Below, one piece after another: positions 15,731-36,100 of a stretch of 64,000 nt of DNA. The DNA lies in assembly GCF_963676685.1 (NCBI RefSeq), contig NC_092345.1, positions 4,836,001 through 4,900,000 of the forward strand, in the 5' to 3' direction. The DNA comes from Mytilus edulis (lineage: Eukaryota). Below the pieces are notes generated by a model. That model was not told where the DNA came from and searched no databases. It was given only the letters and a program-made list of their open reading frames with translations. A program made the translations under genes and the position numbers. How positions within the stretch are numbered: the first letter of the stretch is position 1; each line of letters opens with the position of its first letter.

Positions 15731-18351
15731 TATTATACATTATTATTATACAATATTTATATAGCGCATTATATAATTTGAAAAATTACCCTAAGCGCTT
15801 AACATGAATAAACAAAAAATAAGATACATAAGGTAAAAGTAAAATATACAATCACATAAATACAATTTCTGAGCAGTGGCGTGTAAAATGAAAACATTGA
15901 TTGTCGGTTTTAAAAATAGAATAATATAAAAGAATGTACAACTCACACAAAAAATATCAAAAATTTAAAATTAATCAAAATGAAAGAAAAGTAAAAAGTT
16001 TCAAAAAATAAAAATGAGTTAAGAAAAATTTAAAATTTCCTCTGTATAAATTTAAAATAATGATTATCATTAAACCACAGTGACTCAAGTATTAAAAAAT
16101 ATTAAGTAAAAGTTCACAATACAATCAACTGGTAAAACAAATTGTTCATAAATTTAAAAATTTACAAAAAATCAATGAAAGCACTTCGGAAAAAATATGT
16201 CTTAAGATCCTTTTTAAAAACGTCAAGAGATTGTTCATTTCGTAAGGATGAAGGTAAGCTGTTCCAAAGAGTTGGTGCGGCAATATCGAACCGTCGTTCA
16301 CCATAGCGTTTTGTCCTAACATCGTTTGGTAGTCGTAACAGCATGCTTTTCTCCGATCGCAAGGCTCTACCAGGTTTGTAATGTTCAACTAATTCCTGTA
16401 GGTATGATGGTGCCCTGCCATGAATTGCTTTAAAAATGTACAGCAGGAGTTTGTACTGACAACGAAAATGAACCGGTAACCAGTGCAATGAAATGAGAAC
16501 AGGTGTTATTGAATCGTATTTTCTCTTGCGCGTTATTAGCCGTGCTGCTGTATTTTGCACACGCTGTAGTTTTGTTATTACACAGCTATTTGTTCCGTAT
16601 AACAGCGCATTACCATAATCTAGTCGTGATGTAACGAGTGAGCACACGAGAGTCTTACATGCCTCATCTGTAATCAGGGATCTAATGCGACCAATATTTC
16701 GTATCTGATGAAAACATGCTTTTGTCGTTGCACTAGCTTGTTGTTCCATGCTGAGTGTTTTGTCAAAATAAAATCCAAGATTTTTCACACAAGAAGCATC
16801 AGTCAATATAGTTCCATCGAATGTTAGTTGGAAACTGGATAGTTGCTTTAGTTGTTGTTTTGGTGCAAACACAATTAATTCGGTTTTGTCTTGGTTTAAT
16901 TTAAGCATGTTGATACTCATCCATGCACTGATATCCGACAAACAGTTCTCAAGACGATTAGAGAGGTCCGACCAGTCTCCAAGAGGTTTAATGACTTGAT
17001 ACACTTGCGTGTCGTCAGCGTATGAATGGTAAGACATCCCATGTCGCCTGCAAATTTCTCCGACTGGTTTGGCAAACATACAGAAAAGTTTTGGTCCCAA
17101 CACAGAGCCTTGTGGTACACCAAAGCCGAGTCTGATATCATCCGATTGTACCGATCCGATAGAAACACGCTGAGTTCTATCTGTCAAATATGATTTCAAC
17201 CACAACAGTGCCTCATCAGTTATCCCAAATGAAAACTCTAAACGATTGAGAAGTATTGTATGGTCGATAGTGTCAAATGCAGCAGATAAGTCAAGCATAA
17301 GCAAGACGACACAACAGTTATTATCAAGTGCGCACACAATATCATTATGGACGCGCAAGAGAGCGGTTTCCGTAGAATGGTAGGCACGATACGCTGACTG
17401 AACATGATCATAGAGAGAATAAGACGTGATGTGATTCTCAAAACGAGTGGCAACGACTTTCTCATTTATCTTAGATATGAATGGTAAATTTGAGACCGGC
17501 CGATAGTTTTTTAACACTTCTTTGTCTAAACTCGGTTTTTTCAATAGTGGTCTCACTACCGCTTGTTTAAAAGGCGTTGGAACACACATTTCCGATATCG
17601 ATCTGTTGACTATATTTGTAATAGCTGGTAACAAGTAGTCCAAGCATTGTTTTAGAAGTTGGGTTGGTAATGGATCGAGTTCACATGACTTTGTTGGAGA
17701 CGCTAGGATTATTTTCCGTATTTCTTCATTGGATGCTGATGACAGTGATGTTAGTTGATTACCTTCAAATTTAATGTCAGCTCTCATAGGATTACTGTCA
17801 CTTGAGGAGGTGTTTGTTGTTGACAGGCTGTCACGAATTATACTTATCTTCCCAACAAAGAATTCACAAAACTTGTCGGCAAGTAACTTGTCATCCTCAT
17901 GCTCGGGTAGAAATATTTCTCTTTTATTTCCCATCAAATCATTAGTCAAGCGATGCAGTTGTTTTTGATCGTGTCCAATTTCGGAAACTTTACTGGAGAA
18001 ATAGTCTTTCTTGCATTTTATAAGAAGTTGGTTTGTTGTAATGCAAGACTCTCGGAACATTTGACGATGAATAGTCAGTTTCGTTTTCCGCATACGTCGT
18101 TCTGCTTTGCGGCGGTTTCTTTTAGCGACACGGAGGTCGTCTGTATACCACTCGGTATTAGGTCGTAGTATTAAGTTTTTAGATATTAATGGTGCATGTT
18201 TATCAAGTATGGAACTAAGCTCAGTAGAATATAAGTTCACCAAGTCTTCAAGAGGTCTTTCTTGATTCTGAAAAATTTCCGAATTGACCAAATCGTGAAT
18301 TATATCATCTGTACTGATATTACGCAGTTTTCGATAAGTCACTTCTTTGCG
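15731..18351 (-). mobile_element. 5'-truncated LINE (L2/CR1 group) with an open reverse transcriptase ORF
   Basis: RT motifs [49 protein letters not shown]; no endonuclease domain. The 3' end AAGCGCTTAG...GCGCTATATAAAT plus a (TAA)n-like tail is typical of L2. ATGAA lies on both flanks (15726-15730, 18352-18356). Confidence 0.95.
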
Positions 18352-18450
18352 TTCATCTTTACTAGTCTTACCTTTAGTCATGTCTGCCTCTAATGCACTA
18401 ACTTTAGATTGACGTGCATTGAACTCCGTCTTGTCTGCCTCTAATGCCAT
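16162..18450 (-). CDS. Chimeric ORF: C1qDC coiled-coil tail + unspliced donor + LINE reverse transcriptase (762 aa)
   Basis: Uninterrupted ORF. The first 26 aa are C1qDC exon-1 repeat sequence; GKTSKD comes from the splice junction and intron; the remainder is LINE ORF2. Confidence 0.75.
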
Positions 18451-18879
18451 AACTTAAGATTGAAGTGCATTGAACTCCGTCTTGTCTGCCTCTAATGCAC
18501 CAACTTTAGATTGAAGTGCATTGAACTCCATCTTGTCTGCCTCTAATGCACTAACTTTAGATTGAAGAACATTGAATTCAGTTTTGTCTGCCTCTAATGC
18601 ACTAACTTTAGATTGAAGTGCATTGAAATCAGTCTTGTCTGCCTCTAATGCACTAACTTTAGATTGAAGAGCATTGAATTCAGTCTTGTCTGCCTCTAAT
18701 GCACTAACTTTAGATTGAAGAGCATTGAATTCAGATTTAAGTACATTGAACGCAGATTTAATTGCATTGAATTCACTCTTAGAAACATGTGATCCATTTA
18801 TATTTTCCAGTAGAAATAAATGTGCCTGTTTGAAGATGAATCCTGGAATTATTAGCAAAAGTAGATTTATGCTGCACAT
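18372..18879 (-). CDS. C1qDC gene copy C, exon 1 (signal peptide-like N-terminus + expanded coiled coil; internal TAA at 18454-18456)
   Basis: Hydrophobic N-terminus [16 protein letters not shown]. Homologous to 41913-42072 ([17 protein letters not shown]). Phase-1 donor G|GTAAG at 18372/18371. Confidence 0.85.
18376..18732 (-). repeat. Coding minisatellite, 7 x 51 bp ([17 protein letters not shown])
   Basis: Seven in-frame units counted directly. The paralog has one unit. Confidence 0.95.
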
Positions 18880-18989: not shown

Positions 18990-19156
18990 ATAAATTAAAA
19001 AGTGGGTTAAAGATAAAACGTTTCTGTCGATTTTTTAGTTATACAAAAAGGCATAAATACTGTGCATATGACATATAAAAATTAAATGACAATAACCACT
19101 CGTATATGAGAAGAAATTGATTTTCAAATACGGCGTCTTGTGATAAAGGTAGTATA

Positions 19157-20640
19157 CTATGGCAAGCCGTTCTCGTCAAAACTATGTTTAAACCCTTTTT
19201 TCGAAAAAATTACACAATGAGATTAAAAAACCTAAAATAACACATTGAGAAATCGAAATTACACACTGAGATTTTAAAATTACACACTGAGATTAAAAAA
19301 AATGAAAAACACACACTAAGAAATTAAAATTACACACTGAGATTTTAAAAAGACACACTGAGATTAAACAAATTGAAAAACACACACTGAGAATTGTTAA
19401 TTACACACTGAGATTTCAAAAATACAAGTTGTTAGTCTTGTATTATTTTAATTTTAGTTTCTTGTGTACAATTTGGAAATTAGTATAGCGTTCATTATCA
19501 CTGAACTAGTATATATTTGTTTAGGGGCCAGATGAAGGACGCCTCCGGGTGCGGGAATGTTTCGCTACATTGAAGACCTGTTGGTGACCTTCTGCTGTTG
19601 TTTTTTTCTATGGTCGGGTTGTTGTCTCTTTGGCACATTCCCCATTTCCATTCTCAATTTTACATTGAGATTAATATGCAAATTACTAATGAATATTCAT
19701 GAGATGATTAATTCAACAGATTAATATCATGGTCTCTAGAACTCTTGTCATTATAATGAAATGCGGTTCCTTCAACCAACGTTCATAATAAATTTCAAGA
19801 CTTAAGATCGTTTTTTGCTAACTCATATTCATAAGTTATTTGTCAATATAATTCAGATTAATATTATTGCTAACGGTGTATCGGGATTGTTTGCTTAAAA
19901 CTGTTTAAGCATAAGTCTTTTTCAAAAGTCTTTCAACTGTTACACTGATTTCGCAAGGTAATCTTTTATATTTTTGTTGTTACGTTTATATGTTATAATA
20001 GACACTTGGGTAAACATGTCATTGCATTGTTTGTCTTTTTGTAGATTGTTCCGATGATTTCTTATAATTGTAATAAAGTTTTCAACATTTTGTTATATCA
20101 GAGACATATAATACATGTCTCTGGTTATATTTTGTAATGAGAGTAAGTGGGTATTTTTCTTGTTCTATCGTTCTTTAACGTTGTATTGCTAATGTATTTT
20201 ATAAAACATTTGGCACCAGATTGAAGGACTAACGAGTTATGTCCCCTAGTTGTTTTAAGCTTGTAATATATTAAGATTACGTATGCTAATTAGATATGTG
20301 CACATAAAAAGTGCGCACAAATCTCAGTGTGTAGTTTCAAATTCTCAGTGTGTAATTTAAAATTCTCAGTGTGTGTTTTTCAGTTTATTTCATCTCAGTG
20401 TGTCTTTTTGAAATCTCAGTGTGTAATTTTCAATTCCCAGTATGTAATTTTCAATTCTCAGTGTGTGTTTTTCATTTTTCGTAATCTCAGTGCGTTTCTA
20501 TGAAATATCAGTGTGTAATTTCTTATTCTCAGTGTGTGTTTTTAGGTTTTTAAATCTCAGTATGTTTTTTTAAAATTCTCAGTGTGTAAAATTTTCGAAA
20601 AATGTTTAAACATAGTTTTGACGAGAACGGCTTGCCATAG
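19157..20640. mobile_element. Non-autonomous TIR transposon with subterminal ~20-bp repeat arrays
   Basis: Perfect 37-bp TIR CTATGGCAAGCCGTTCTCGTCAAAACTATGTTTAAAC, TA(TA) flanks, TACACACTGAGA arrays at 19210-19420 mirrored at 20320-20590. A dispersed repeat (~19430-19660, related copy ~37540-37780) is nested inside. Confidence 0.92.
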
Positions 20641-21488
20641 TATACCAACTATAATTAATCTCAAGTATAAAACTGACAAACATTGAAACGTATATAAATG
20701 ATTCGTATATATTTAAAATAAAGGTATTCACCATTGTATAATTCGTCACACCATTCATCCATCCGTTACACCAATTTTAATTCGTCACACCAATTGTTAT
20801 TTACCATTGTATCATATGTCACACCACTTAATCAACCGTCACACCATTTTTAAACCGTCATACCATTATGATGTTATTTTCAGTGGTAAATGTGAGGCAT
20901 ATGATAGAATTTAAAAAAAAAGTGTCTGACAAAAGTAGTGACAGTGACACAGTCGAGAATTTTGACATTACCGACTGTGATTTATCATTGTGGTTTTAAT
21001 TGCATCGAGTACGACAACGGGTGCCACTGGCGGAGCAAGAACTGCTATCTCGTCGGAGCACCCAAAGTGTATTGTGAATGTTTCTTTTCATCATTTGTTT
21101 TTGCCATTTCTCATGTTACTAAGTTTGGATAGTTTACTTCTCTGTAGAGAGTTAAATCAGGGAAGTGAAACCCCTGATTTGCGACTATTGGTGGAAATTA
21201 TTTACAAAATGGGAATATAGGGAAAGTTATATGGCATTGCCTCAAACTGGCTATAACTTAATGCGTGCAACTGCATAAAGTATGATGCACAAATTGTTAC
21301 TGTGATGAGAGATTAGCCAGGGTTACTCTTCACAATTTTTATTTGTACTTTAAGCATGATATCACGAAGCGTCATAACCCCTGTAAATTGAGGCAAGTGT
21401 TTAATGCAGTGTCAGCATGTAATGCATTCTGGGTAATATTTTCAAAAGCATGCACCACAACATCGATGAGTTGAAAACGTTCAACCAA

Positions 21489-22346
21489 TGTAACGTGTTT
21501 GGCTTATAAACTATATGTTCGTATCCGTTTTCACAGAATCTGAGATACTCCAATATCAATCTTTTAATTAACTCGAAAACCTAACTACAACTTGGAGGCT
21601 TTCCTTAAAAACTACAAGACCAGTATTTAAACTTTGAAACTTAATAAAGAAATAATAATATTCACACAAATAACTGTATATCAAAAAGTAGCCTGAAAAC
21701 TATAACCTCAATTTATCCTTGATCCTTTCACTGACTCCGAGGTCCCAACTGATTTGACAAACAATTATATTAAACTTAATTAAGAACAATCTTCAAAAAA
21801 ATCATAGGTTTCCGAAACACCTAGTTCTGAGACACCCAGTCTCTAAAACACCTAGTCCTGAAATGACTAGTCTCTGAAGCACCTAAGTTACCAGATTATT
21901 ACAAGCTATCTGTTCGAGGGACTGCGACCATTCCCAAGGGAAATTACAGTTTCGGAACAACGCGGTAGCTTGCAATAATTGTAATACCTTTAAAAACCGC
22001 TTGCTTCAAAACTACAACGCTTTCAACTCAACTAGGTTTATAAACTTACTTTCCAGCTTCAAATTTCAATTCTTCAATTCCTTCAGAAGCGATTATTATC
22101 CGTCGACAGCCAGATTACAAATGACAAAAAAAACACAATGAATCGGTGTCTTTATATACCAAGAGCGCGGACCTCGAAGAGAGCACCCTAGTAACAATTA
22201 ACGCGTCTCATAACAACCAAGGATAAAAGAATGATTTCATATGCATTTATCGTTAACGCATTGTCCAAACGGGTAATTTATTATAGATAACAATTAAACG
22301 ATAAACTATAGATATTGTCTTATGCCTAAACTGCATTTTTGTCACA
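21489..22346 (-). repeat. 3' LTR (858 bp)
   Basis: Matches 28749-29606 with two substitutions seen. Preceded on the minus strand by the purine-rich GGAGGCGTGGGTAA (22347-22360). Confidence 0.97.
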
Positions 22347-22673
22347 TTACCCACGCCTCCGATTTCATGCGTCCTCGCATGACTAACATACTTTTATTTC
22401 CTATTTGTATATACACAAAGCAACTGCAAAAGAATAAGTTTTAAATGTCCCTAACAAATTTTGCCTCTGCAGCGGCCCCAAGGAGCCTACTCTTAACGAA
22501 ATCTGCAGGAGGGGTCTTTTACATGCACAGGGCGAGACATGTTCCTGTACATGGGGCCTCGGATTTAACGTCCCCATCCGACGGACTCGCATATTGTATA
22601 TAAAACTCTGCATGAAATAATATATATTTTTTTTTTATTACTGTTTTTGCTGCCTGCAATAACAGATCAAAGT

Positions 22674-23555
22674 TTAATCATAAGAAAGAAATTCTTCAAA
22701 CACTGTCTCTTTAATCTCTCTGTTGTTCTCAACATATCTGGTAACGGTCTTGATATATTTTCTGTGTTTTAATCCTTCGACCTGTACAGCCTTATCTTGA
22801 AAAGTACTGTCAATTTCTCTCTTGTTCTTTCCATTTTCACTAGTCACCTGCGACTCAGACTTTGTCTCCTCTGAATGTTCTTCTGGTTCTGGTTCAGTTT
22901 CACTTTTACTGTTTAAATCTGGACTGTGAACTTTTCCATCTATTTCTTGCTTGTTCGATGACTCTTTCAATAGTGCAAGTAACTTCTCTTTTTTTGGAGC
23001 CAACACTTTATCTGGTCTGGTTGGCTTTCTTGTGATTCTCCCCTCCAGACAAACTTTATCACAAATCTTAGCTGTTTCAGGCGGATTTTTATCCTTTTCT
23101 GGTCCCGGACTGACATTTTCATCATCGATGCTTTCTCCACCTGAGATGTCTCCTATCAGGTTTTTTAACTCTCCGGGATCGGAAAACTCTTTTCCACTTC
23201 CTGAGGAGGATTCACTGTCATCAGAAAATGAATCTGACTCATCTGAACTGTTATCTTTTTCCTTGGATTGAACATTCTGTTCTTTCTTTTCTTCCTGTTT
23301 ATCAAGAGGTACCTCAACTACTTTAACATCTTCATGTTGATGATACTTTTTCATATGACGTGCATAATATACCTTCTTCTTGAACATTTGGTTGCACTGG
23401 TAGCAGGTCAATCTACTCTTGTCTTGTGCACATGTTAAAACATGATTTTTCAGCTTATCAGTGTCGCTGTATTCCTCCTTGCATAATGGACAAGTTTCTT
23501 TCATAACTAGCATCACTTGCTTTGTCAGTCTTGGTGTTGTCTTTGTTTTAACCAT
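22674..23555 (-). CDS. Retrotransposon ORF3 (env position): C2HC + C2H2 zinc fingers and an acidic/Ser-rich disordered region, 293 aa
   Basis: C-x2-C-x12-H-x3-C and C-x2-C-x12-H-x4-H motifs. No signal peptide or transmembrane segment. Acceptor ttttaatgttttgtAG lies 3 nt before the ATG. Confidence 0.85.
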   Translation of the reverse strand: MVKTKTTPRLTKQVMLVMKETCPLCKEEYSDTDKLKNHVLTCAQDKSRLTCYQCNQMFKKKVYYARHMKKYHQHEDVKVVEVPLDKQEEKKEQNVQSKEKDNSSDESDSFSDDSESSSGSGKEFSDPGELKNLIGDISGGESIDDENVSPGPEKDKNPPETAKICDKVCLEGRITRKPTRPDKVLAPKKEKLLALLKESSNKQEIDGKVHSPDLNSKSETEPEPEEHSEETKSESQVTSENGKNKREIDSTFQDKAVQVEGLKHRKYIKTVTRYVENNREIKETVFEEFLSYD

Positions 23556-23683
23556 TACCTACAAAACATTAAAATATACATTATAATTTTCGATCCTCTT
23601 CGAAACACATTTTTTTTTAAATTTATTTACATATATATATATATATCAAATATATACAACATTCTGTAGAATACAACTTAATT

Positions 23684-26267
23684 CTATCCAAAATCACAAA
23701 TGAAGTCCTGGTATCGCTCAGGACGTTTTACTTCGCGTCTGGGGCGAATGTTGTCTCTTAAAGAAACATCAGTAAACTCATCAGTATGTTTATCAATCTC
23801 GTTTTCGACATCTTCTATTACTCGATCATTTATAACTAAATCAACGTCTTCTTCTCTTAACATTTGTGAGATTTTTTTCTTAATCCTATCACAATGGATA
23901 ACTTGTGGCTTGCCACTTCTGCCACAATTAACCTCATATAACACATTAGACATTTTCCTCAAAATTGTAAAAGGGCCCCTCCAAAATGATGTTAGCTTAG
24001 AGGAACACCCTATCTTTTTCTGTGGGAAAAATATATATACTTCATCCCCTTCTTCAAATTTTCGCCAGGATAATTTCTTGTCATGATATGTTTTCTGTCT
24101 AAGTATGGCTTGTTTTATATGTCCCCTTACAAATGTGTGAGCATCTTCTATACGTTCTTTAAGTTCCCATACCCACTGATTAGTAGGAACTGGTTTCACA
24201 CTCGTAGGCATGCAATAAATTAAGTCAAGGGGCATTGTTGTCTCACGACCAAGCATGAGTAAGTTCGGAGTCGTACCTGTTGTTTCATGCTCAGCGGCTC
24301 GGTAAGCCATCATTACATATGGCAAATGCACATCCCAATCTCTATGATGCTCATGAACGTATGAACTGAGCATAACTTCTAGGGTTTGGTTGAATCTCTC
24401 TACCATACCATCTGATTTAGGATGGTATGGAGTAGTTCTTGTTTTGTCAATTTCTAAGAGGTTACACATCTCCGAAAACAACTTGCTCTCATACTGTAAT
24501 CCTTGATCTGAATGAATCGTATATGGTATTCCAAATCGAGCCACAACTTCCTCAACGAGTATCTTTGCCACAGTTCATGGGAACTCCTGATTGAACAACC
24601 TGCATGGGAGCACGTTTCTTTTGCAAAGGCCGCTTACGTCTGGTACATTTATCACAGCCTGCAACATATCTCCGTACATCATCTTGTTGACCAGGCCAAT
24701 AAAATCTCTGTCTTATTTTACCTAACGTTTTGGTGACTCCCAAGTGTCCTGATGTTCGGACATCATGACAATATTCAAGAATTTTTCGTCTTTCACACAA
24801 AGGTACAACAGCCTGACAGTATGTAATATTTGTACTTCCTATTTCCCAAGTCCTACATACCAGCTCATTCTCGATACAGAGTCGGTTGAACTGACTCCAA
24901 AGACTTCGCATGAAATAACTGCCACAAACTTCTTCCCAGGATGGTCTTTCACCCTTTTCTAGCCATTCTCTGACCTTACTTATATTTGTATCGGCATTCT
25001 GAGCTTCCTGGATCTCAGTAATAACACTGACTTTGTTGGATTCATTTATATTTTTAGATTGAATGTTCTGTGAATAACCAACCGCTGTGTCTTTCTCTAT
25101 ATTACAATGATTGCATTGCTTGCATGGCAGGCGACTTAAAAAATCAGCATTATTATGTTTGACACCTGGTCGATGTTCAATTTCCATATCGTAAGAAAAC
25201 AACACCTCCAACCACCTCGCCATCTGTCCTTCGGGATTTTTGAAATTTAGGAGCCAGCGAAGTGAACTGTGGTCTGTACGAATTTTAAACTTTTTGCCGT
25301 AAAGATAGTTTTTGTAATACTTTGAGAAGTGAACCACTGCAAGCAGTTCTTTTCTTGTAACTCAGTACTTGCGCTCTGATTTCGTCAAACTTCTGCTACC
25401 ATATGCAATAACTTTTTCTGTATCGTCTTGAATCTGCGAAAGTACAGCACCAATGGCTGTTCCACTAGCATCTGTGTCAAGTATGAACGGTTTTGTAAAA
25501 TCGGGATGAGCAAGGACTGGGGCTGTGGTGAGACACATTTTAAGTTTTAAGAAAGCTTCATTGCATTCATGCGACCAATCGTACTTTTTATTTTTTTCAG
25601 TAAGTTTGTGTAAAGGTTTAGCAATAGCTGCAAAACCCTCTACAAATCTTCTGTAGTAACTACAGAATCCTAAAAATGATCTTACATCAGAAACATTTGA
25701 TGGTGTTGGCCAGTTTTGAACAATTTCTAGTTTCTTTTTATCTGTAGCAACACCATCCTCAGAAATAATGTGCCCTAAGTATTCTACTTCAGTAGCAAAC
25801 AAAGTACATTTTCGGGGTTTAAGTTTCAAATTAGCAGATCGCAATCTGTCAAAAACGGTAGCTAGATTTTTCAACATGTCTTCAAAGCTTTTTGCAAAAA
25901 CAATTATATCGTCTAGGTATATCAAGCATAACTCCCATTGCAACCCTGCTAATACCATCTCCATCAGACGCTCAAAAGTTGCTGGTGCGTTACATAATCC
26001 AAAAGGGAGTACTCTGAACTGAAACAACCCTTTTCTTGTAGCAAATGCAGTTTTGAACCGATCTGATGCTTCAACCTCTACCTGCCAGTATCCAGAGCAA
26101 AGGTCTAGCGTAGAAAACAACTTCGCACCCGACAGCTGTTCTAGTGAATCATCAATTCTAGGTAGAGGATATGCGTCCTTAACTGTCGAGCTGTTGAGCA
26201 TGCGATAGTCCACACAAAATCGCGTAGAACCATCTTTTTTCTTACTAAAACTACCCCTGAAGCCCAA
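23684..26267 (-). pseudogene. Gypsy pol (RT, RNase H, integrase) with a frameshift, a stop and an internal deletion
   Basis: RT YLDD; RNase H DTDAS; integrase HHCC region and HSDQG...VERFN. Lesions: one A missing near 26238, TGA at 25362-25364 within SERKY*VTRKELLA, and a deletion near 24578 removing the start of the integrase core. Confidence 0.92.
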
Positions 26268-28549
26268 GGGCTGCTTGAATGCTCAATGATGCCCTTTTCT
26301 AACATGTCATCAATTGTTTTATCAACCTCAGGCTGTAAATGAAAAGGTATACGTCTTGGAGGTTCTTTATGTGGCATGTTTTCATGCGTATTAATGCTGT
26401 GTTTAACAACAGTCGTCCGGCCCAAGTCGGAATCAGATTCTGAAAATACATCTGAATATTTAGAAAGAAAATTTTTAACCAATTCCCTTTTATTCTCTGG
26501 CATATTTTTAACTGTGTCTTTATACAATTGCTGCATATGTTTGGGTAGTGAGCTTTCAATCATTGTTTCACTAGGTTCTGATACTATTATCTCCTCGACT
26601 GGACTCAACTGTCCTACTATTGTACCTTCATGAATTGTTTGAGTTTCATCAGACAAATTCATAAACCTGAGTGGAACTTTCTCTTGATTCTTAACCAATA
26701 TTCTACCTAAAAGACCCTTATTTGTGTCTACAAACTCTTGTGTTGGTTCAACAATACCAACTTGTTGATTTGGTAGAACTGGACCTCTGACAGTGCCAGG
26801 TACCATAACTTCACTACGAGGAGGTAGTTGTACAGTTTGTGCTACTGATACGCGATAACAGCCTATCTGACCTTCAAAATGTAAACGCGTTTCTCGTCCG
26901 TTTACCCAAATACTACCTCTGGTAAGATTGATAACACAATCTTGATTTCTTTGAAAGTCTATTCCCAATATGCCATCTATTTGAAGGTCTGCTACTACAG
27001 CAATATTTGAACAAACATATCCATTTAATTCAATGTCAATAATAGTTTTCCCAAACAGAACTAAGGGAGAACCATTTGCAGTCAATATCTCTCTGTCCAT
27101 TGGTGACAGAACATGAGAATGCATACTGTCAAATATTTGTTTGGAAATAAGGGATACTGTCGCCCCTGTGTCTATAAGCATCTTTGCTTTACGACCATTG
27201 ACTTTAACCTCTATAAACATTCCAGCCTCATTTGCTAATTTGTTAACTCCTATTACACCGTTCTGTTTTTCATGTGAAACTTCGGCTCCGTTTTCGGAGT
27301 TTGGATGTCCCGTTTTCACACTACTTTCGGGACAATCTTTTTTGAAATGTCCAAATTTGCCACAGTTGAAGCATCCACGTTTCTTACGATTCTGGAATTG
27401 TGAATTACCTTTAAAAGGAAACCACCCTTTTCCCTGAGATATTTGCAAAGCTTTTACTTCTTGTTGCAGATCAGTCAAAGCTGTCTGTATGTTTTTAAGT
27501 AGCTCTACTGTTTTGTCGCTGGTGACAGTAGTGTCTACATCTGTATTTGTAGCTCTTAAATAACCTTTCCCTTCCTCCCGCTTTATTTCAGCCTTATTGA
27601 AAGCTTCTAGTTCAACAGCGTGCCGAACTGCGTCATTCAGGTCGGCAGGTCTAGCTTGTTTAATTCTAAGTCTCATGTCCACACTCATGAGCCCGTCTAT
27701 AAATTGCTCTTTAGCTAGAGTTTCCCTAACGTCATTTGGGGCTGTTGGATATGAAAGGTTCGCCAAGCGTCTTATGTCCTGACCTAATTCAGGAAGGCTT
27801 TCTGAAGCTTTTTGACGACGCTCCCGTAGTTGTGTTCGATACAACTCCGTTTGATTGGCAGGCGAAAATCTCTCTTCAAGAGACCTAACAAGTTCTATAA
27901 AAGTTTGTCTTTTATCTGTGGGTAGATTTCCTAGTACCCCCTGAGCTTGCCCCCTCAATGAAACTGCCAAATACAAACCCTTTTCTGTATCTGTCCATCC
28001 ATTTATACTTGAACAAGCTTCGAAATGAGATTTGTAATCTATCCATGAGCCCTGCCCATCAAACGTAGCGGGTTTTATGATATTTTTGTTTTTGTTGTCT
28101 CCCCTATATGCACCTAATTTGTCTTGTGGTTTTTGTAGACTTTTCTTTCGTCTCTCATTTACAAAATTTGTCTCAAGAACAGAATCTGAATAAGTTCTCA
28201 TTTCTGGTGTTAATTTTACAGAATCGGGAATATCTTTATTATGTATTTCAGGCCGTGGCATAACTTTTGTCTTAGCCCCTACCCCAACGTGTGTACTTTG
28301 GAGTATGTTGCTGCCTGTACCAGAGTCTGGGTCTGGAATTCTAGCAGAAGCAATTCCAGAGTCAGATTGTCTTGGACGTGTTGCTTGACTAATAGGAGTT
28401 GACTGAGCAAAGTCTGGGGTATTTTCAAAACTCTTATTTCTTAAGCACTCTATTTCCTTGTTTAATTTATCTAATTCCCTGGTCAAATTTCTTGTTTCGA
28501 CACTGTAAGGGTCATACAACATTTTATCTTCTCTGTATGCTCGGGACAT
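26141..28549 (-). CDS. Gypsy gag-protease ORF running into the RT N-terminus
   Basis: KPATFDG capsid start, CFNCGKFGHFKKDC knuckle, LIDTGA protease active site, GIIEHSSSPWAS RT start. Confidence 0.95.
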   Translation of the reverse strand: MSRAYREDKMLYDPYSVETRNLTRELDKLNKEIECLRNKSFENTPDFAQSTPISQATRPRQSDSGIASARIPDPDSGTGSNILQSTHVGVGAKTKVMPRPEIHNKDIPDSVKLTPEMRTYSDSVLETNFVNERRKKSLQKPQDKLGAYRGDNKNKNIIKPATFDGQGSWIDYKSHFEACSSINGWTDTEKGLYLAVSLRGQAQGVLGNLPTDKRQTFIELVRSLEERFSPANQTELYRTQLRERRQKASESLPELGQDIRRLANLSYPTAPNDVRETLAKEQFIDGLMSVDMRLRIKQARPADLNDAVRHAVELEAFNKAEIKREEGKGYLRATNTDVDTTVTSDKTVELLKNIQTALTDLQQEVKALQISQGKGWFPFKGNSQFQNRKKRGCFNCGKFGHFKKDCPESSVKTGHPNSENGAEVSHEKQNGVIGVNKLANEAGMFIEVKVNGRKAKMLIDTGATVSLISKQIFDSMHSHVLSPMDREILTANGSPLVLFGKTIIDIELNGYVCSNIAVVADLQIDGILGIDFQRNQDCVINLTRGSIWVNGRETRLHFEGQIGCYRVSVAQTVQLPPRSEVMVPGTVRGPVLPNQQVGIVEPTQEFVDTNKGLLGRILVKNQEKVPLRFMNLSDETQTIHEGTIVGQLSPVEEIIVSEPSETMIESSLPKHMQQLYKDTVKNMPENKRELVKNFLSKYSDVFSESDSDLGRTTVVKHSINTHENMPHKEPPRRIPFHLQPEVDKTIDDMLEKGIIEHSSSPWASGVVLVRKKMVLRDFVWTIACSTARQLRTHILYLELMIH

Positions 28550-28725
28550 ATTTTGAAGAATAATTTAACAAAAATAAACAATAAGTTTTCAAATATATTT
28601 TATTTAACAATCTGACAATCAATGTATTTACAAAACAGTGTGTTGCTTCTTGCAAGTAATGACAAATAGGAAATAATGACAATAAAACAATGTGATTATT
28701 TACATATAATACTGAAGTTTCTCAG

Positions 28726-28744
28726 ATCCCACCGCTGCTAACCA
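28726..28744 (-). other. Primer binding site, tRNA-Leu-like
   Basis: TGGTTAGCAGCGGTGGGAT, 4 nt inside the 5' LTR, is near-complementary to the eukaryotic tRNA-Leu 3' end (...AUCCCACCGCUGCCACCA). Confidence 0.75.
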
Positions 28745-28748
28745 ATTT

Positions 28749-29606
28749 TGTAACGTGTTTGGCTTATAAACTATATGTTCGTATCCGTTTTCACAGAATC
28801 TGAGATACTCCAATATCAATCTTTTATTTAACTCGAAAACCTAACTACAACTTGGAGGCTTTCCTTAAAAACTACAAGACCAGTATTTAAACTTTGAAAC
28901 TTAATAAAGAAATAATAATATTCACACAAATAACTGTATATCAAAAAGTAGCCTGAAAACTATAACCTCAATTTATCCTTGATCCTTTCACTGACTCCGA
29001 GGTCCCAACTGATTTGACAAACAATTATATTAAACTTAATTAAGAACAATCTTCAAAAAAATCATAGGTTTCCGAAACACCTAGTTCTGAGACACCCAGT
29101 CTCTAAAACACCTAGTCCTGAAATGACTAGTCTCTGAAGCACCTAAGTTACCAGATTATTACAAGCTATCTGTTCGAGGGACTGCGACCATTCCCAAGGG
29201 AAATTACAGTTTCGGAACAACGCGGTAGCTTGCAATAATTGTAATACCTTTAAAAACCGCTTGCTTCAAAACTACAACGCTTTCAACTCAACTAGGTTTA
29301 TAAACTTACTTTCCAGCTTCAAATTTCAATTCTTCAATTCCTTCAGAAGCGATTATTATCCGTCGACAGCCAGATTACAAATGACAAAAAAAACACAATG
29401 AATCGGTGTCTTTATATACCAAGAGCGCGGACCTCGAAGAGAGCACCCTAGTAACAATTAACGCGTCTCATAACAACCAAGGATAAAAGAATGATTTCAT
29501 ATGCATTTATCGTTAACGCATTGTCCAAATGGGTAATTTATTATAGATAACAATTAAACGATAAACTATAGATATTGTCTTATGCCTAAACTGCATTTTT
29601 GTCACA
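28749..29606 (-). repeat. 5' LTR (858 bp)
   Basis: Minus strand has TATATAAA (29411-29418), a GTAAGT donor-like site (29304-29309) and AATAAA (28823-28828). Confidence 0.97.
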
Positions 29607-30170
29607 CCAATAACGTGACGTTATTTTCAATTTGAGGGTACGAACTATGAAACAACTTTCGATTTTGCAGTTAATTTCTACAGTATGGTACATATCAGCA
29701 ATGTTGTTTCAACATATTTTGAATTTGCTAAATAATCTGGTCAAGTCCAAGTCAAATAAAACTAGCAAAAATCCAAACTCCGAGGAAAAATCAAAACGGA
29801 AATTCATTAAAAAATACCTTATGATATTGCTGACTTAAAACAGGCATTTCCTCATGCATAAAGTGGTGAAATAAATTTCTTTAAACAACATTACGACAAA
29901 CAGCAACTCAAAACCCACTAAAACTAGGGTTGGACTTAGGTTCTCCTGAGGAGTAAGTTGTCCCTGTTCCTCTGGTGTTACCCGTCGTGTTATTTCTTTT
30001 AAAATACACTGAATATGAGATGATTACACATTACACACTAGAAGATTGGTGAATATACATGGTATCTTATCCACAATTTTATTCATTTGAAAATGCCTAT
30101 ACAAAGTCAGGAATATGACAGTCGTTGTCCATTCGTTTGATGTATTTGATCATTTGATTTTGCCAATTGA

Positions 30171-33100
30171 GTATAGGGACTTTCCGTTTTGAATTTTTTC
30201 TTATTTTACTTTTTAAAATCAGAAGAGCACAGGCATTCGGTTTTCTAGCTGACTTTTTGACATTGTTTTAATATTGTTTTCAGATTGTGTCATAGATCAA
30301 AATTTATTCGTTCAGTTTATGTTTACTTGTCTTTATTAATACCTGTTTGTATAATATGATTGTCACTGTAACTTTTTATTATAGTATAAGGGAGATAATC
30401 ATTTGAAGGAAAAAGCTAGAGTTTAACATTTTCCAGGATTTTAATCGGCAGGTGTAGCACGTTAACTTTGGAGCGCTGTGATTTGATGTAATGATAAAAC
30501 ATATTTTTATTTCTTATAACCGAATAACTGAAGTGCATATATTTACAATATCAATTTTGAAAAGTGACACATTTTTCTCATGTCAATGTCTTTATTTTTC
30601 GTGGTATTTTCATATTTCATGAGCGGTGTGAGAAAAATGTTTCTCGTCACTAAGGAAATATCTGTTCTCGCCAAATGAATAGTCGAAATTTAATTATGAC
30701 GTCCAAATTTCTTGGTTTCTTCTGAATTTTCATATTGTGACGTCTTTAAAAAATATAGGCGACCATGCCTGATGAAGTCGCATATAACACAACTTTCTGA
30801 AACTCAAGGAAAAAGAAGTAAAAAATCATTAGAGAAACAGATTCCACCACTGTAACTCGTGTTTTACGATATTTCTCCTCTCTCAACAGTTAAATTTTAA
30901 AAAGTTCGACAAGCCTTGCGCCTTATATAATAACAGTTAACTGTCTCGAGTGGAGATATATCGTAATTTTAAGTATGTTGTAGTGTAGGAATGTATATTT
31001 CCAAAACAGATTAATAAAGTACTAATATCACGTATTGCTGTTTTTCCAGGTTTGTATTAAAGTGTTAAATTAGAAAATTGTAAGTATTGTCGACTAGGGA
31101 GGAAAAATACTACATATAATGATATACCGTTTTCTCGAGACAAAAAAATATTACAACTCATATCAGACCCCAACAAACAAATAGGGGAAAGCTGAAATCA
31201 TATTTGATCTTTAAATAATTTGGTCATTCACTTTAAATAGTCCGTTTTTGGTAAAGTAGTTCCCCTTTTTAGCTCACCTGGCCCGAAGGGCCAAGTGAGC
31301 TTTTCCCATCACTTTGCGTCCGGCGTCCGTCGTCGTTAACTTTTACAAAAATCTTCTCCTCTCAAACTGCTGGGCCAAATTAAACTAAACTTGGCCACAA
31401 TCATCATTGGGGTATCTAGTTTAAAATATGTGTGACTTGACCCCGCCTACCAACCAAGATGGCCGCCATGGCTAAAAATAGAACATAGGGGTAAAATGCA
31501 GTTTTTGGCTTATAACTCAAAAACCAAAGCATTTTTCGCAAATCTGACATGGGGTAAAATTGTTTATCAGGTCAAGATCTATCTGCACTGATATTTTCAG
31601 ATGAATCAGACAATCCGTTGTTGGGTTGCTGCCCCTGAATATGTAATTTTAAGGAAATTTTGCTGTTTTTGGTTATTATCTTGAATACTATTATAGATAA
31701 AGATAAACTGTAAACAGCAATAATGTTCAGCAAAGTAAGATTTACAAATAAGTCAACATGATTGAAATGGTCAATTGACCCCTTTAGGAGTTATTGCCCT
31801 TTATAGTCATTTTTTAACCATTTTTCATAAATCTTAGTCATCTTTTAGAAAAATCTTCTCCTCTGAAACTACTGGGGCGGGCCAAATTAAACCAAACATG
31901 GCCACAATCATCATTGGGGTATCTTGTTTAAAAAATGTGTGGCGTGACCCTGCCAACCAACCAAGATGGCCACCATGGCTAAAAATAGAACATGGGGGTA
32001 AAATGCAGTTTTTGGCTTATAACTCAAAAACCAAAGCATTTAGAGCAAATCTGACTTGGGGAAAATTGTTCATCAGGTCAAAATTTATCTGCCCTGAAAT
32101 TTTCAGATGAATCGGATAACCTGTTGTTGGGTTGCTGCCCCTGAATTGGTAATTTTAAGGAAATTTTGCTGTTTTTGGTTATTATCTTGAATATTATTAT
32201 AGATAGAGATAAACTGTAAACAGCAATAATGTACAGCAAAGTAAGACCTAAAAAGAAGTCAACATGACCAAAATGGTCAATTGACCCCTTAGGAGTTATT
32301 GCCCTTTAAATAGTCATTTTTTTTTTAACAATTTTCACAAAATTTGTAAAATTTTACTAACATTTTCCACTGTAACTACTGGGTCAAGTTCATTATAGAT
32401 AGAGATAATTGTAAGCAGCAAGAATGTTCAGTAAAGTAAGATCCACAAACACATCACCATCACCAAACCACAATTTTGTCTTGAATCCATCTGTTTCCTT
32501 TGCTTAGTATTCACATAGAGTATAGGGACTTTCCGTTTTGAATTTTTTCTTATTTTACTTTTTAAAATCAGAAGAGCACAGGCATTCGGTTTTCTAGCTG
32601 ACTTTTTGACATTGTTTTAATATTGTTTTCAGATTGTGTCATAGATCAAATTTATTCGTTCAGTATATGTTTACTTGTCTTTATTAATACCTGTTTGTAT
32701 AATATGATTGTCACTGTAACTTTTTATTATAGTATAAGGGAGATAATCATTTGAAGGAAAAAGCTAGAGTTTAACATTTTCCAGGATTTTAATCGGCAGG
32801 TGTAGCACGTTAACTTTGGAGCGCTGTGATTTGATGTAATGATAAAATATATTTTTATTTCTTATAACCGAATAACTGAAGTGCATATATTTACAATATC
32901 AATTTTGAAAAGTGACACATTTTTCTCATGTCAATGTCTTTATTTTCTGTGGTATTTTCATATTTCATGAGCGGTGTGAGAAAAATGTTTCTCGTCACTA
33001 AGGAAATATCTGTTCTCGGCAAATGAATAGTCGAAATTTAATTATGACGTCCAAATTTCTTGGTTTCTTCTGAATTTTCATATTGTGACGTCTTTACAAA

Positions 33101-36100
33101 ATATAGGCGACCATGCCTGATGAAGTCGCATATAACACAACTTTCTGAAACTCATGGAAAAAGAAGTAAAAAATCATTAGAGAAACAGATTCCACCACTG
33201 TAACTCGTGTTTTACGATATTTCTTCTCTCTCAACAGTTAAATTTTAAAAAGTTCGACAAGCCTTGCGCCTTATATAATAACATTTAACTGTCTCGAGTG
33301 GAGATATATCGAAATTGTAAGTATGTTGTAGTGTAGGAATGTATATTTCCAAAACAGATTAATAAAGTACTAATATCACGTATTGCTGTTTTTCCAGGTT
33401 TGTATTAAAGTGTTAAATTAGAAAATTGTAAGTATTGGCGACTAGGGAGGAAAAATACTACATATAATGATATACCGTTTTCTCGAGACAAAAAAATATT
33501 ACAACTCATATCAGACCCCAACAAACAAATAGGGGAAAGCTGAAATCATATTTGATCTTTAAATAATTTGGTCATTCACTTTAAATAGTCCGTTTTTGGT
33601 AAAGTAGTTCCCCTTTTTAGCTCACCTGGCCCGAAGGGCCAAGTGAGCTTTTCCCATCACTTTGCGTCCGGCGTCCGTCGTCGTTAACTTTTACAAAAAT
33701 CCTCTCCTCTCAAACTGCTGGGCCAAATTAAACCAAACTTGGCCACAATCATCATTGGGGTATCTAGTTTAAAAAATGTGTGACTTGACCCCGCCTACCA
33801 ACCAAGATGGCCGCCATGGCTAAAAATAGAACATAGGGGTAAAATGCAGTTTTTGGCTTATAACTCAAAAACCAAAGCATTTTGCGCAAATCTGACATGG
33901 GGTAAAATTGTTTATCAGGTCAAGATCTATCTGCCCTGATAGTTTCAGATGAATCAGACAATCCGTTGTTGGGTTGCTGCCCCTGAATATGTAATTTTAA
34001 GGAAATTTTGCTGTTTTTGGTTATTATCTTGAATATTATAATAGATAGAGATAAACTGTAAACAGCAATAATGTACAGCAAAGTAAGACCTAAAAAGAAG
34101 TCAACATGACCAAAATGGTCAATTGACCCCTTAGGAGTTATTGCCCTTTAAATAGTCATTTTTTTTTAACAATTTTCACAAAATTTGTAAAATTTTACTA
34201 ACATTTTCCACTGTAACTACTGGGTCAAGTTCATTATAGATAGAGATAATTGTAAGCAGCAAGAATGTTCAGTAAAGTAAGATCCACAAACACATCACCA
34301 TCACCAAACCACAATTTTGTCTTGAATCCATCTGTGTCCTTTGTTTAGTATTCACATAGAGTATAGGGACTTTCCGTTTTGAATTTTTTCTTATTTTACT
34401 TTTTAAAATCAGAAGAGCACAGGCATTCGGTTTTCTAGCTGACTTTTTGACATTGTTTTAATATTGTTTTCAGATTGTGTCATAGATCAAATTTATTCGT
34501 TCAGTATATGTTTACTTGTCTTTATTAATACCTGTTTGTATAATATGATTGTCACTGTAACTTTTTATTATAGTATAAGGGAGATAATCATTTGAAGGAA
34601 AAAGCTAGAGTTTAACATTTTCCAGGATTTTAATCGGCAGGTGTAGCACGTTAACTTTGGAGCGCTGTGATTTGATGTAACGATAAAATATATTTTTATT
34701 TCTTATAACCGAATAACTGAAGTGCATATATTTACAATATCAATTTTGAAAAGTGACACAATTTTCTCATGTCAATGTCTTTATTTTTCGTGGTATTTTC
34801 ATATTTCATGAGCGGTGTGAGAAAAATGTTTCTCGTCACTAAGGAAATATCTGTTCTCGCCAAATGAATAGTCGAAATTTAATTATGACGTCCAAATTTC
34901 TTGGTTTCTTCTGAATTTTCATATTGTGACGTCTTTAAAAAATATAGGCGACCATGCCTGATGAAGTCGCATATAACACAACTTTCTGAAACTCAAGGAA
35001 AAAGAAGTAAAAAATCATTAGAGAAACAGATTCCACCACTGTAACTCGTGTTTTACGATATTTCTTCTCTCTCAACAGTTAAATTTTAAAAAGTTCGACA
35101 AGCCTTGCGCCTAATATAATAACATTTAACTGTCTCGAGTGGAGATATATCGAAATTGTAAGTATGTTGTAGTGTAGGAATGTATATTTCCAAAACAGAT
35201 TAATAAAGTACTAATATCACGTATTGCTGTTTTTCCAGGTTTGTATTAAAGTGTTAAATTAGAAAATTGTAAGTATTGTCGACTAGGGAGGGAAAATACT
35301 ACATATAATGATATACCGTTTTCTCGAGACAAAAAAATATTACAACTCATATCAGACCCCAACAAACAAATAGGGGAAAGCTGAAATCATATTTGATCTT
35401 TAAATAATTTGGTCATTCACTTTAAATAGTCCGTTTTTGGTAAAGTAGTTCCCCTTTTTAGCTCACCTGGCCCGTCGTCCGTCGTCGTTAACTTTTACAA
35501 AAATCTTCTCCTCTCAAACTGCTGGGCCAAATTAAACCAAACTTGGCCACAATCATCATTGGGGTATCTAGTTTAAAAAATGTGTGACTTGACCCCGCCT
35601 ACCAACCAAGATGGCCGCCATGGCTAAAAATAGAACATAGGGGTAAAATGCAGTTTTTGGCTTATAACTCAAAAACCAAAGCATTTTGCGCAAATCTGAC
35701 ATAGGTAAAATTGTTTATCAGGTCAAGATCTATCTGCCCTGATAGTTTCAGATGAATCAGACAATCCGTTGTTGGGTTGCTGCCCCTGAATATGTAATTT
35801 TAAGGAAATATTGCTGTTTTTGGTTATTATCTTGAATACTATTATAGATAGAGATAAACTGTAAACAGCAATAATGTTCAGCAAAGTAAGATTTACAAAT
35901 AAGTCAACATGATTGAAATGGTCAATTGACCCCTTTAGGAGTTATTGCCCTTTATAGTAATTTTTTAACCATTTTTCATAAATCTTAGTCATCTTTTAGA
36001 AAAATCTTCTCCTCTGAAACTACTGGGCCAAATTAAACCAAACATGGCCACAATCATCATTGGGGTATCTTGTTTAAAAAATGTGTGGCGTGACCCTGCC

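Follow-up and report, generated by a model that had tools for sequence, protein, structure and literature searches.

What does the zinc-finger reading frame in the env slot of a Mytilus edulis Gypsy retrotransposon encode, and what might it do for the element that carries it? The question arises from a 64,000-nucleotide stretch of contig NC_092345.1 (positions 4,836,001 to 4,900,000; hereafter the window), for which a sequence-only reading had proposed a dedicated nuclear accessory protein, expressed from a spliced RNA in the manner of env and possibly acting on chromatin or against silencing.

A zinc-finger gene in the env slot

The window contains a complete element with the domain order gag-PR-RT-RH-INT and a 4-nt target duplication (Table 1). 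The element is young, and its sole full-length sister copy (L031) is 99% identical to it. Comparison with this copy confirmed the three lesions that had been noticed in pol, which is frameshifted near 26238, interrupted by a stop at 25362 and shortened by a 128-nt deletion near 24577; the contrast that had been drawn between a damaged pol and an intact third ORF (ORF3) is, however, at the level of chance, as none of five lesions across the two copies falls within ORF3 (P=0.43). The primer-binding site of sister lineages complements the 3' end of the host tRNA-Leu(AAG), and that of the window element is slightly different. Matches to the tRNA-Leu 3' end also occur in long tandem arrays with a spacing of ~1.3 kb (L145 and L150; G000:C2 near 53.8 Mb and C10 near 80.0 Mb), where the two loci that were checked are tRNA-Leu(AAG) genes. 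One mismatch between the LTRs (28828 versus 21568) lies in a candidate poly(A) signal, which reads AATAAA in the 5' LTR and ATTAAA in the 3' LTR; the ATTAAA form is also found in the LTRs of most relatives.

Table 1. Features of the Gypsy element and of ORF3, in window coordinates
Feature	Position	Strand	Details
Complete Ty3/Gypsy (Metaviridae) LTR retrotransposon	21489-29606	-	Paired LTRs, target duplication, tRNA primer-binding site, polypurine tract (PPT)
5' LTR	28749..29606	-	858 nt, TG...CA; 2 mismatches versus 3' LTR
TATA box candidate	29411..29418	-	Kept in related non-autonomous LTRs
Candidate splice donor	29304..29312	-	AAA|GTAAGT at 29309
Primer-binding site	28727..28744	-	tRNA-Leu type; complementarity to host tRNA-Leu(AAG)
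gag, protease and start of pol	26238..28549	-	Capsid-like, CCHC knuckle
RT, RNase H, integrase	23684..26237	-	Carries three lesions
Splice acceptor	23559..23575	-	Pyrimidine tract and TAG; exon start 23558
ORF3	22674..23555	-	293-aa accessory protein, between integrase and 3' LTR
H3-like N-terminal tail	23526..23552	-	aa 2-10; T3, K4, T6, R8 in H3 register
Finger 1, C2HC	23430..23492	-	aa 22-42; C-x2-C-x12-H-x3-C
Finger 2, C2H2	23340..23405	-	aa 51-72
Conserved [DN]PG motif	23154..23180	-	Inside acidic disordered tract; 24/29 relatives
Conserved basic motif	23013..23042	-	GR-x-x-RK-x-T-x-P; 25/29 relatives
LC8/DYNLL-type motif	22776..22796	-	aa 254-260, VQV anchor; 19/29 relatives
Predicted C-terminal beta-hairpin	22680..22769	-	aa 263-292; AlphaFold
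Conserved structured RNA	22458..22581	-	3' UTR, 124 nt; pseudoknot and hairpins
Purine-rich PPT region	22347..22381	-	Conserved, preceding 3' LTR
3' LTR	21489..22346	-	858 nt

ORF3 is an intact sense frame of 293 aa (ATG at 23555, stop at 22674-22676), and the tandem C2HC and C2H2 fingers, the acidic and Ser-rich tract (22 D/E and 15 S in aa 76-150) and the basic GRITRKPTRP patch (aa 172-181) are present as first described. Both fingers score below the curated Pfam cut-offs (24.6 bits versus 27 for the C2HC finger; 23.1 versus 25.2 for the C2H2 finger). Basic residues occupy helix positions -1 and +6 of finger 2, which are DNA-contact positions, in most relatives, and finger 1 is mostly without basic residues at such positions. 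Within the basic motif, R176 and P181 are near-invariant. The AlphaFold model consists of the two fingers, a long stretch of disorder in the middle and, at the C-terminus, a beta-hairpin block with pLDDT 74-90 across aa 261-290.

Errantivirus env-F occupies the same slot and is typically expressed from a spliced subgenomic transcript (PMC12992720, in part), but ORF3, unlike env-F, has no signal peptide, fusion peptide or transmembrane helix. With a maximum 19-residue hydropathy of 0.21, an envelope identity (env-F or retroviral env) was rejected, in agreement with the sequence-only reading. That reading did not recognise ORF3 as a described family either, and Pfam offered nothing but generic fingers. 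A search of the ESM Atlas returned generic C2H2 clusters, with no usable match for the finger-less part of the protein.

Distribution, loss and selection

Elements were chosen by integrase similarity alone, and 45 loci of the clade and 20 more distant loci were read; relationships were taken from a quick tree of own-genome integrases only, which included 62 of 65 rows (L088-L090 were omitted as too short). The clade comprises eight lineages, and ORF3 is present in at least one copy of seven of them. Whole or broken, it was found at 14 of the 45 clade loci and is lacking at the other 31, seven of which have no LTR pair and may be truncated. The L052 lineage lacks ORF3, derivatives of two further lineages have deleted it, and ORF3-less derivatives have arisen at least three times in the clade. 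Several of these copies retain uninterrupted gag-pol frames and LTRs that are 99-100% identical, which indicates that ORF3 is accessory and dispensable in cis. Absence or neutral decay of ORF3 in sister copies had been named beforehand as evidence that would speak against a dedicated gene. Absence is indeed widespread; in the tree it reads as repeated loss of an accessory gene and not as neutral decay.

ORF3 is under purifying selection. Four copy pairs yielded 31 synonymous and 25 non-synonymous changes (pooled pN/pS 0.22, p=2e-8) which, together with the occurrence in seven of eight lineages, upholds the idea of a conserved gene dedicated to this lineage. Two of five pairs appeared unconstrained in the initial comparison: L053/L054, where a ratio of 1.08 stems from a frameshifted tail and the first 238 codons contain no changes, and L095/L096, which encode a different type of ORF3 (ratio 0.84).

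A profile search of 1.84 billion representatives recovered more than two dozen additional short proteins that have the complete architecture. Named relatives come from mussels and scallops (Mytilus, Pecten, Ylistrum), the nearest of them from Mytilus, and one record in a Pecten cluster places the family protein directly 3' of a Gypsy integrase. Long multi-finger proteins and those with fused or altered starts (P0003, P0010, P0012, P0049, P0124) were dropped before arriving at the 29 proteins counted here; 27 relatives share the architecture at 24-46% identity to the window protein. The NCBI record of one family member (P0102) is assigned to a 'Candidatus Thiodiazotropha' MAG and is probably host DNA in a symbiont assembly. 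Databases label ORF3 proteins as uncharacterised or as host genes with a C2H2 domain, a practice that would inflate counts of bivalve zinc-finger genes.

Beyond the clade, a finger-led ORF follows pol at 14 of the 20 loci with ~40% integrase identity, mostly behind an acceptor, so that the feature is general in this genome. A BTB_2 domain ends three of the 18 ORF3s scanned from distant clades (E 1e-7 to 2e-16). ORF3s with N-terminal fingers and a C-terminal BTB_2 of the KCTD type lie at L091:6579-7946, L097:7026-8075 and L101:6738-7928, with L100 as a remnant. Other finger-led types with varied C-terminal modules are encoded at L092, L093, L095, L096, L098, L099, L104, L105, L107, L109 and L110; these modules include coiled coils, an uncharacterised domain common to L093, L095 and L098, and TQT-like motifs in L093 and L095. 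At L102, L106 and L108 the pol frame extends ~860-1420 nt beyond the integrase core and there is no separate finger ORF.

Mollusc Gypsy elements have been classified into clades MolGy1-16, C, AB and CsRN1 (PMC6238403, in part). The word 'zinc' does not occur in the available portions of two mollusc TE surveys (PMC6238403, PMC10294476), nor does 'third ORF' in the available main text of the former, and the accessible passages of PMC12440569 and PMC11952523 mention other extra domains and ORFs only. Open literature, excluding Repbase, subscription papers and supplements, contained no description of the ORF3 family or of a retrotransposon-encoded H3 mimic; a prior database annotation of the family is possible. 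We conclude that ORF3 represents a real, conserved and apparently undescribed family of accessory genes.

Probable splicing and expression of ORF3

The acceptor that was proposed to feed ORF3 is present, with its AG at 23560-23559, 3 nt 5' of the ATG. The site has only 9 of 14 pyrimidines and owes its strength to its recurrence in relatives. Under a criterion of a pyrimidine tract plus YAG, 12 of 19 lineages have an acceptor no more than 10 nt from the ATG when the Met is chosen strictly and blind, versus 145 of 3893 background ATGs (3.7%); with the listed starts the figure is 15 of 19.

On the 5' side, the TATATAAA that had been placed upstream of the donor was located at 29418. The consensus donor is likewise present, but its hexamer is not rare by chance: the probability of at least one GTAAGT per shuffled LTR is 0.36, and 0.06 within the 80 nt downstream of the TATA box. 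No other GTRAGT occurs in the element outside the 3' LTR (1 seen, 5.0 expected), and the candidate has the best U1 match, tied with five other sites; its position varies across lineages. Non-autonomous copies have an altered donor GT at 11 of 11 loci. The same comparison shows like differences at 51 of 251 nearby positions, includes one row that is not an LTR and draws on copies of shared ancestry. Given this background and shared ancestry, and the donor retained by the ORF3-less L072, we attach little weight to donor loss. LTRs of non-autonomous copies carry a further AATAAA just 5' of the position equivalent to the window donor. There is no ATG from the TATA box to the candidate donor in the window, and a spliced RNA would therefore start its protein at the Met of ORF3. 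In the env cases the upstream exon supplies coding letters (PMC12992720, in part), whereas the ORF3 ATG sits within the terminal exon.

Four NCBI gene models (P0002, P0003, P0178, P0009), all of them predictions, join upstream exons at the acceptor or its equivalent. Reads joining 29310 to 23558 had been suggested as a check, and no such junction between LTR and ORF3 was listed in four runs with thin coverage. Two raw RNA runs, of which 6% and 18% were read, yielded 31 and 7 element reads and zero depth over ORF3. Two sets of contigs, guessed to be RNA but possibly DNA, overlap the gene: X1 has a depth of 3-7 over 22589-23556 and zero in the next six bins, and X2 covers the 3' half of ORF3 only. 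A repeat at 23616-23659 cuts reads in the coverage of this region, and none of the sequence sets listed with ORF3 is recorded as RNA. The layout of an acceptor before the ATG recurs far above chance, and no junction was seen; judged from this layout, ORF3 is likely to be translated from a spliced subgenomic RNA.

Possible roles of the ORF3 protein

Histone H3 from the same genome starts MARTKQTARK, and the N-termini of seven lineages, picked by integrase similarity alone, all keep T3, K4, T6 and R8. Each of the seven matches host H3 residues 1-9 at four to six positions; the chance of this is 0.0019 for at least four matches and 0.00012 for at least five, figures that apply to one ancestral event and not to seven. 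Among internal 9-mers, 8 of 5886 reach four H3 matches. Among the non-redundant relatives whose start is clear, 27 in number, K4 is found in 27, T6 in 26, T3 in 25, R8 in 24 and K9 in 18. These figures are biased, since the motif was itself rewarded by the search profile and about eight rows are query members or near to them; one relative begins MANTKQTARK. Two proteins (P0013 and P0056) were excluded from these counts for a wrong choice of Met or a truncated start, and the probable start of P0013 has T, not K, at position 4. R2 occurs in none of the 27, which have N or K there, position 7 is P in 21, and the residue after the initiator Met is small (V, A or P) in all of them. The T-P-R-K of the tail could alternatively be read as a CDK site, or as a minor-groove/NLS motif. 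No H3-like start is seen in the ORF3s of more distant clades.

Host H3TMs are defined as iM-Z-R-X-K, with Arg at position 2 a defining residue; chromatin factors are over-represented among human proteins that have an H3-like N-terminus, and such proteins require removal of Met (PMC8166343, in part). ORF3, being without R2, fails this definition and yet, at the level of sequence, matches H3 at other positions. It resembles host H3TMs in its small residue after Met, K4 and disordered tail, and in that these are often found on zinc-finger proteins (PMC8166343, in part); unlike the R2-defined motifs, it keeps T3, T6, R8 and often K9 and is encoded by a transposon. Viral histone mimics are a further comparable class.

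A second feature is the LC8-type motif near the C-terminus. Of 29 relatives, 19 have the pattern [TVI]Q[TV] in their final 60 aa, versus 3.3 in shuffles (maximum 10), and the TQT-type anchor sits in a predicted disordered region. A complex model of ORF3 with host LC8 scored 0.44 versus 0.16 for the best control, with partner pLDDT 43-47; no fewer than 80% of contacts recur between model runs, and the partner pLDDT is 42 or higher. The pass mark for the 0.44 score was reached by 51 of 78 solved pairs and 2 of 108 mismatched pairs, and passing scores of 0.60 or below comprised five solved pairs plus all four passing mismatches out of 180; because LC8-peptide complexes have already been solved, the pass may reflect memory. 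The model lends weak support to binding of LC8 by ORF3. One LC8 client, ASCIZ, is a zinc-finger factor. Many peptides with the defined TQT anchor fail to bind LC8 (PMC6607443, in part). ORF3 is like the clients ASCIZ and Panoramix, a piRNA silencing factor that is dimerised by LC8 (PMC7861614, in part), in having a TQT-type motif in a disordered region of a putative nuclear regulator (PMC6607443; PMC7861614; PMC5963919, all in part), but these are host proteins, whereas ORF3 is transposon-encoded, has one motif and is only predicted to bind. In flies, LC8 is a part of piRNA-guided silencing.

The H3-like N-terminus and the LC8-type motif were missed by the sequence-only reading and add evidence for its chromatin interpretation. 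We favour, with a probability of about 45%, the reading that ORF3 is a trans-acting chromatin accessory factor that uses its H3-like tail. ORF3 would act in trans on the element's own chromatin and keep the LTR expressed. A short non-coding LTR exon would be joined to an acceptor lying 0-9 nt 5' of the ATG, which would place the tail exactly at the start of the protein, and the small residue after Met would permit removal of Met, as in H3. Dimerisation of the disordered C-terminal half by LC8 could give a binder of LTR DNA or nascent RNA with four fingers instead of two, and the T3-K4-x-T6-x-R8(-K9) tail may then engage, or serve as a decoy for, the host proteins that write, erase or read H3K4/K9 marks at the element. 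ORF3-less and non-autonomous copies might free-ride on protein from ORF3-bearing copies. Beyond the anatomy, each of these steps is our inference.

TE-encoded trans-acting anti-silencers do exist. VANC, of the Arabidopsis VANDAL DNA transposons, is likewise TE-encoded with a proposed trans action on the chromatin of its own family (PMC5735166, in part), but it has different domains, belongs to a plant DNA transposon and has been shown to cause sequence-specific loss of DNA methylation (PMC5735166, in part). Both an extra spliced ORF in the env slot (env-F, CERV) and TE anti-silencers (VANC) are already known. Counter-silencing by animal LTR retrotransposons is poorly known, the precedents that we found being a plant DNA-transposon anti-silencer and a nematode RNA-export factor. 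The ORF3 family offers short testable motifs (K4 in H3 register, the LC8 anchor and two fingers), and ORF3-bearing and ORF3-less sister elements coexist naturally in one genome. A broader proposal, possible but in our judgement doubtful, is that spliced zinc-finger genes in the env slot of animal Gypsy elements make up a large class that has been overlooked and that would form a modular chromatin counter-defence, in which a finger pair is combined with a swappable effector (an H3-tail mimic with LC8 motif, a BTB domain or a coiled coil). The version in this clade would be an H3 mimic that turns host H3K4/K9 machinery and LC8 to the element's advantage, with ORF3-less cheaters riding along.

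The main rival, though an unlikely one, is a factor like Rev or CERV, which would bind element RNA and let unspliced genomic RNA evade splicing and exit the nucleus. The CERV protein of C. elegans Cer1 provides a direct Gypsy-type precedent, being encoded in the env position, made from a spliced mRNA and required for export of genomic RNA (PMC10309623, in part). CERV has its N-terminal half in common with the Gag reading and contains H, M and G domains (PMC10309623, in part), whereas ORF3 appears to be one coding exon and combines a pair of classical fingers with an H3-like tail and an LC8 motif. Export would also suit the conserved structured RNA after ORF3, in which 89.5% of cells are paired and seven pairs show two-sided changes, exceeding all slid controls. 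This RNA is present in most lineages, among them the window element, L003, L053, L074, L082, L066 and L072, and is 95-100% identical in the 40 places scored, while the integrases of the lineages that carry it are ~60-68% identical; Rfam gave no match to it, with nothing under E 0.6, and it may resemble SINE central domains (V/Meta). Loss of ORF3 was accompanied by loss of its acceptor, and the copies concerned would then have no need of such a factor. However, the structure is retained in ORF3-less and non-autonomous copies and is missing from the ORF3-bearing L051 lineage, and export leaves the H3-register tail unexplained.

The chromatin reading has to accommodate the excess of ORF3-less over ORF3-bearing copies (31 versus 14 of 45), which speaks against an anti-silencing role and which a cost or repression fits equally. 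Together with the at least three origins of ORF3-less derivatives in the clade, this excess is consistent with a self-limiting repressor, whose unmethylated H3-like tail would recruit NuRD or a demethylase to the LTR and cap copy number. Unmethylated host H3 mimics, including those of the zinc-finger proteins SALL1, FOG1 and BCL11, bind NuRD (PMC8166343, in part). The tail of ORF3 is missing R2, however, and purifying selection on a self-repressor would presumably be hard to sustain when deletion mutants arise readily, and we consider this role quite unlikely.

ORF3 could also function in the particle or at integration, with an integrase-ORF3 or Gag-PR-ORF3 fusion tethering integration to chromatin. 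The four NCBI models noted above join integrase exons to ORF3, and P0167 reads pol into ORF3 in frame. Young non-autonomous copies with the structure LTR-gag-PR-(rear of ORF3 in frame)-LTR and without RT-RH-INT are abundant (L033-L035, L038-L050) and derive from at least two parent lineages; Gag-PR is fused in frame to ORF3 from finger 2 onward in two or more such families. Against this, the joined models are predictions, an in-frame outcome has a 1-in-3 chance per event and the pol stop lies 61-160 nt upstream of ORF3 in the six lineages measured; a fusion would also bury the tail, although the spacing of the tail from the N-terminus is conserved. We regard such a role as improbable. A further non-autonomous body, L137 (G000:C10 near 9.015 Mb), has a 3' UTR and LTR 99% identical to those of the window element; it is likely a recombinant and suggests co-packaging.

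Slightly more improbable still is a ubiquitin-linked adaptor that would remove or redirect a host restriction or silencing factor. Finger 1 has the spacing of NEMO and optineurin, UBZ fingers are among fold matches at Z ~3, and ORF3s of another clade end in BTB_2 domains. NEMO is the best single-finger PDB match for finger 1 of a hand-picked scallop member (E 0.001), but the matches of the window finger are weak (optineurin 0.055, NEMO 0.079) and tie with ordinary C2H2 and MOZ-type fingers, and the window ORF3 has no BTB. No NEMO chain was among the best 60 matches listed in a PDB search with the family profile, and a fold search with ORF3 residues 10-76 gave no match at Z >=5 (model pLDDT 57.8, pTM 0.20). 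A captured host fragment carried as a functionless passenger would fit the repeated loss of ORF3 and the lack of raw RNA reads on it, but is largely refuted by the pN/pS of 0.22, the motifs and architecture kept at such low identity across relatives, and the recurrent acceptors, and is barely credible.

Other repeats lie close to the element in the window. A 763-aa open frame with an RVT_1 domain at 16162-18453 (-) is probably a non-LTR retrotransposon, and a 51-nt tandem repeat at 18322-18783 overlaps its 5' end. A foldback or MITE-like element at 19144-20653 has 56-nt terminal inverted repeats and inverted arrays of a 21-nt unit, and positions 30166-34000 contain a local duplication, whose period is ~2348 nt, together with a sub-repeat of 506 nt.
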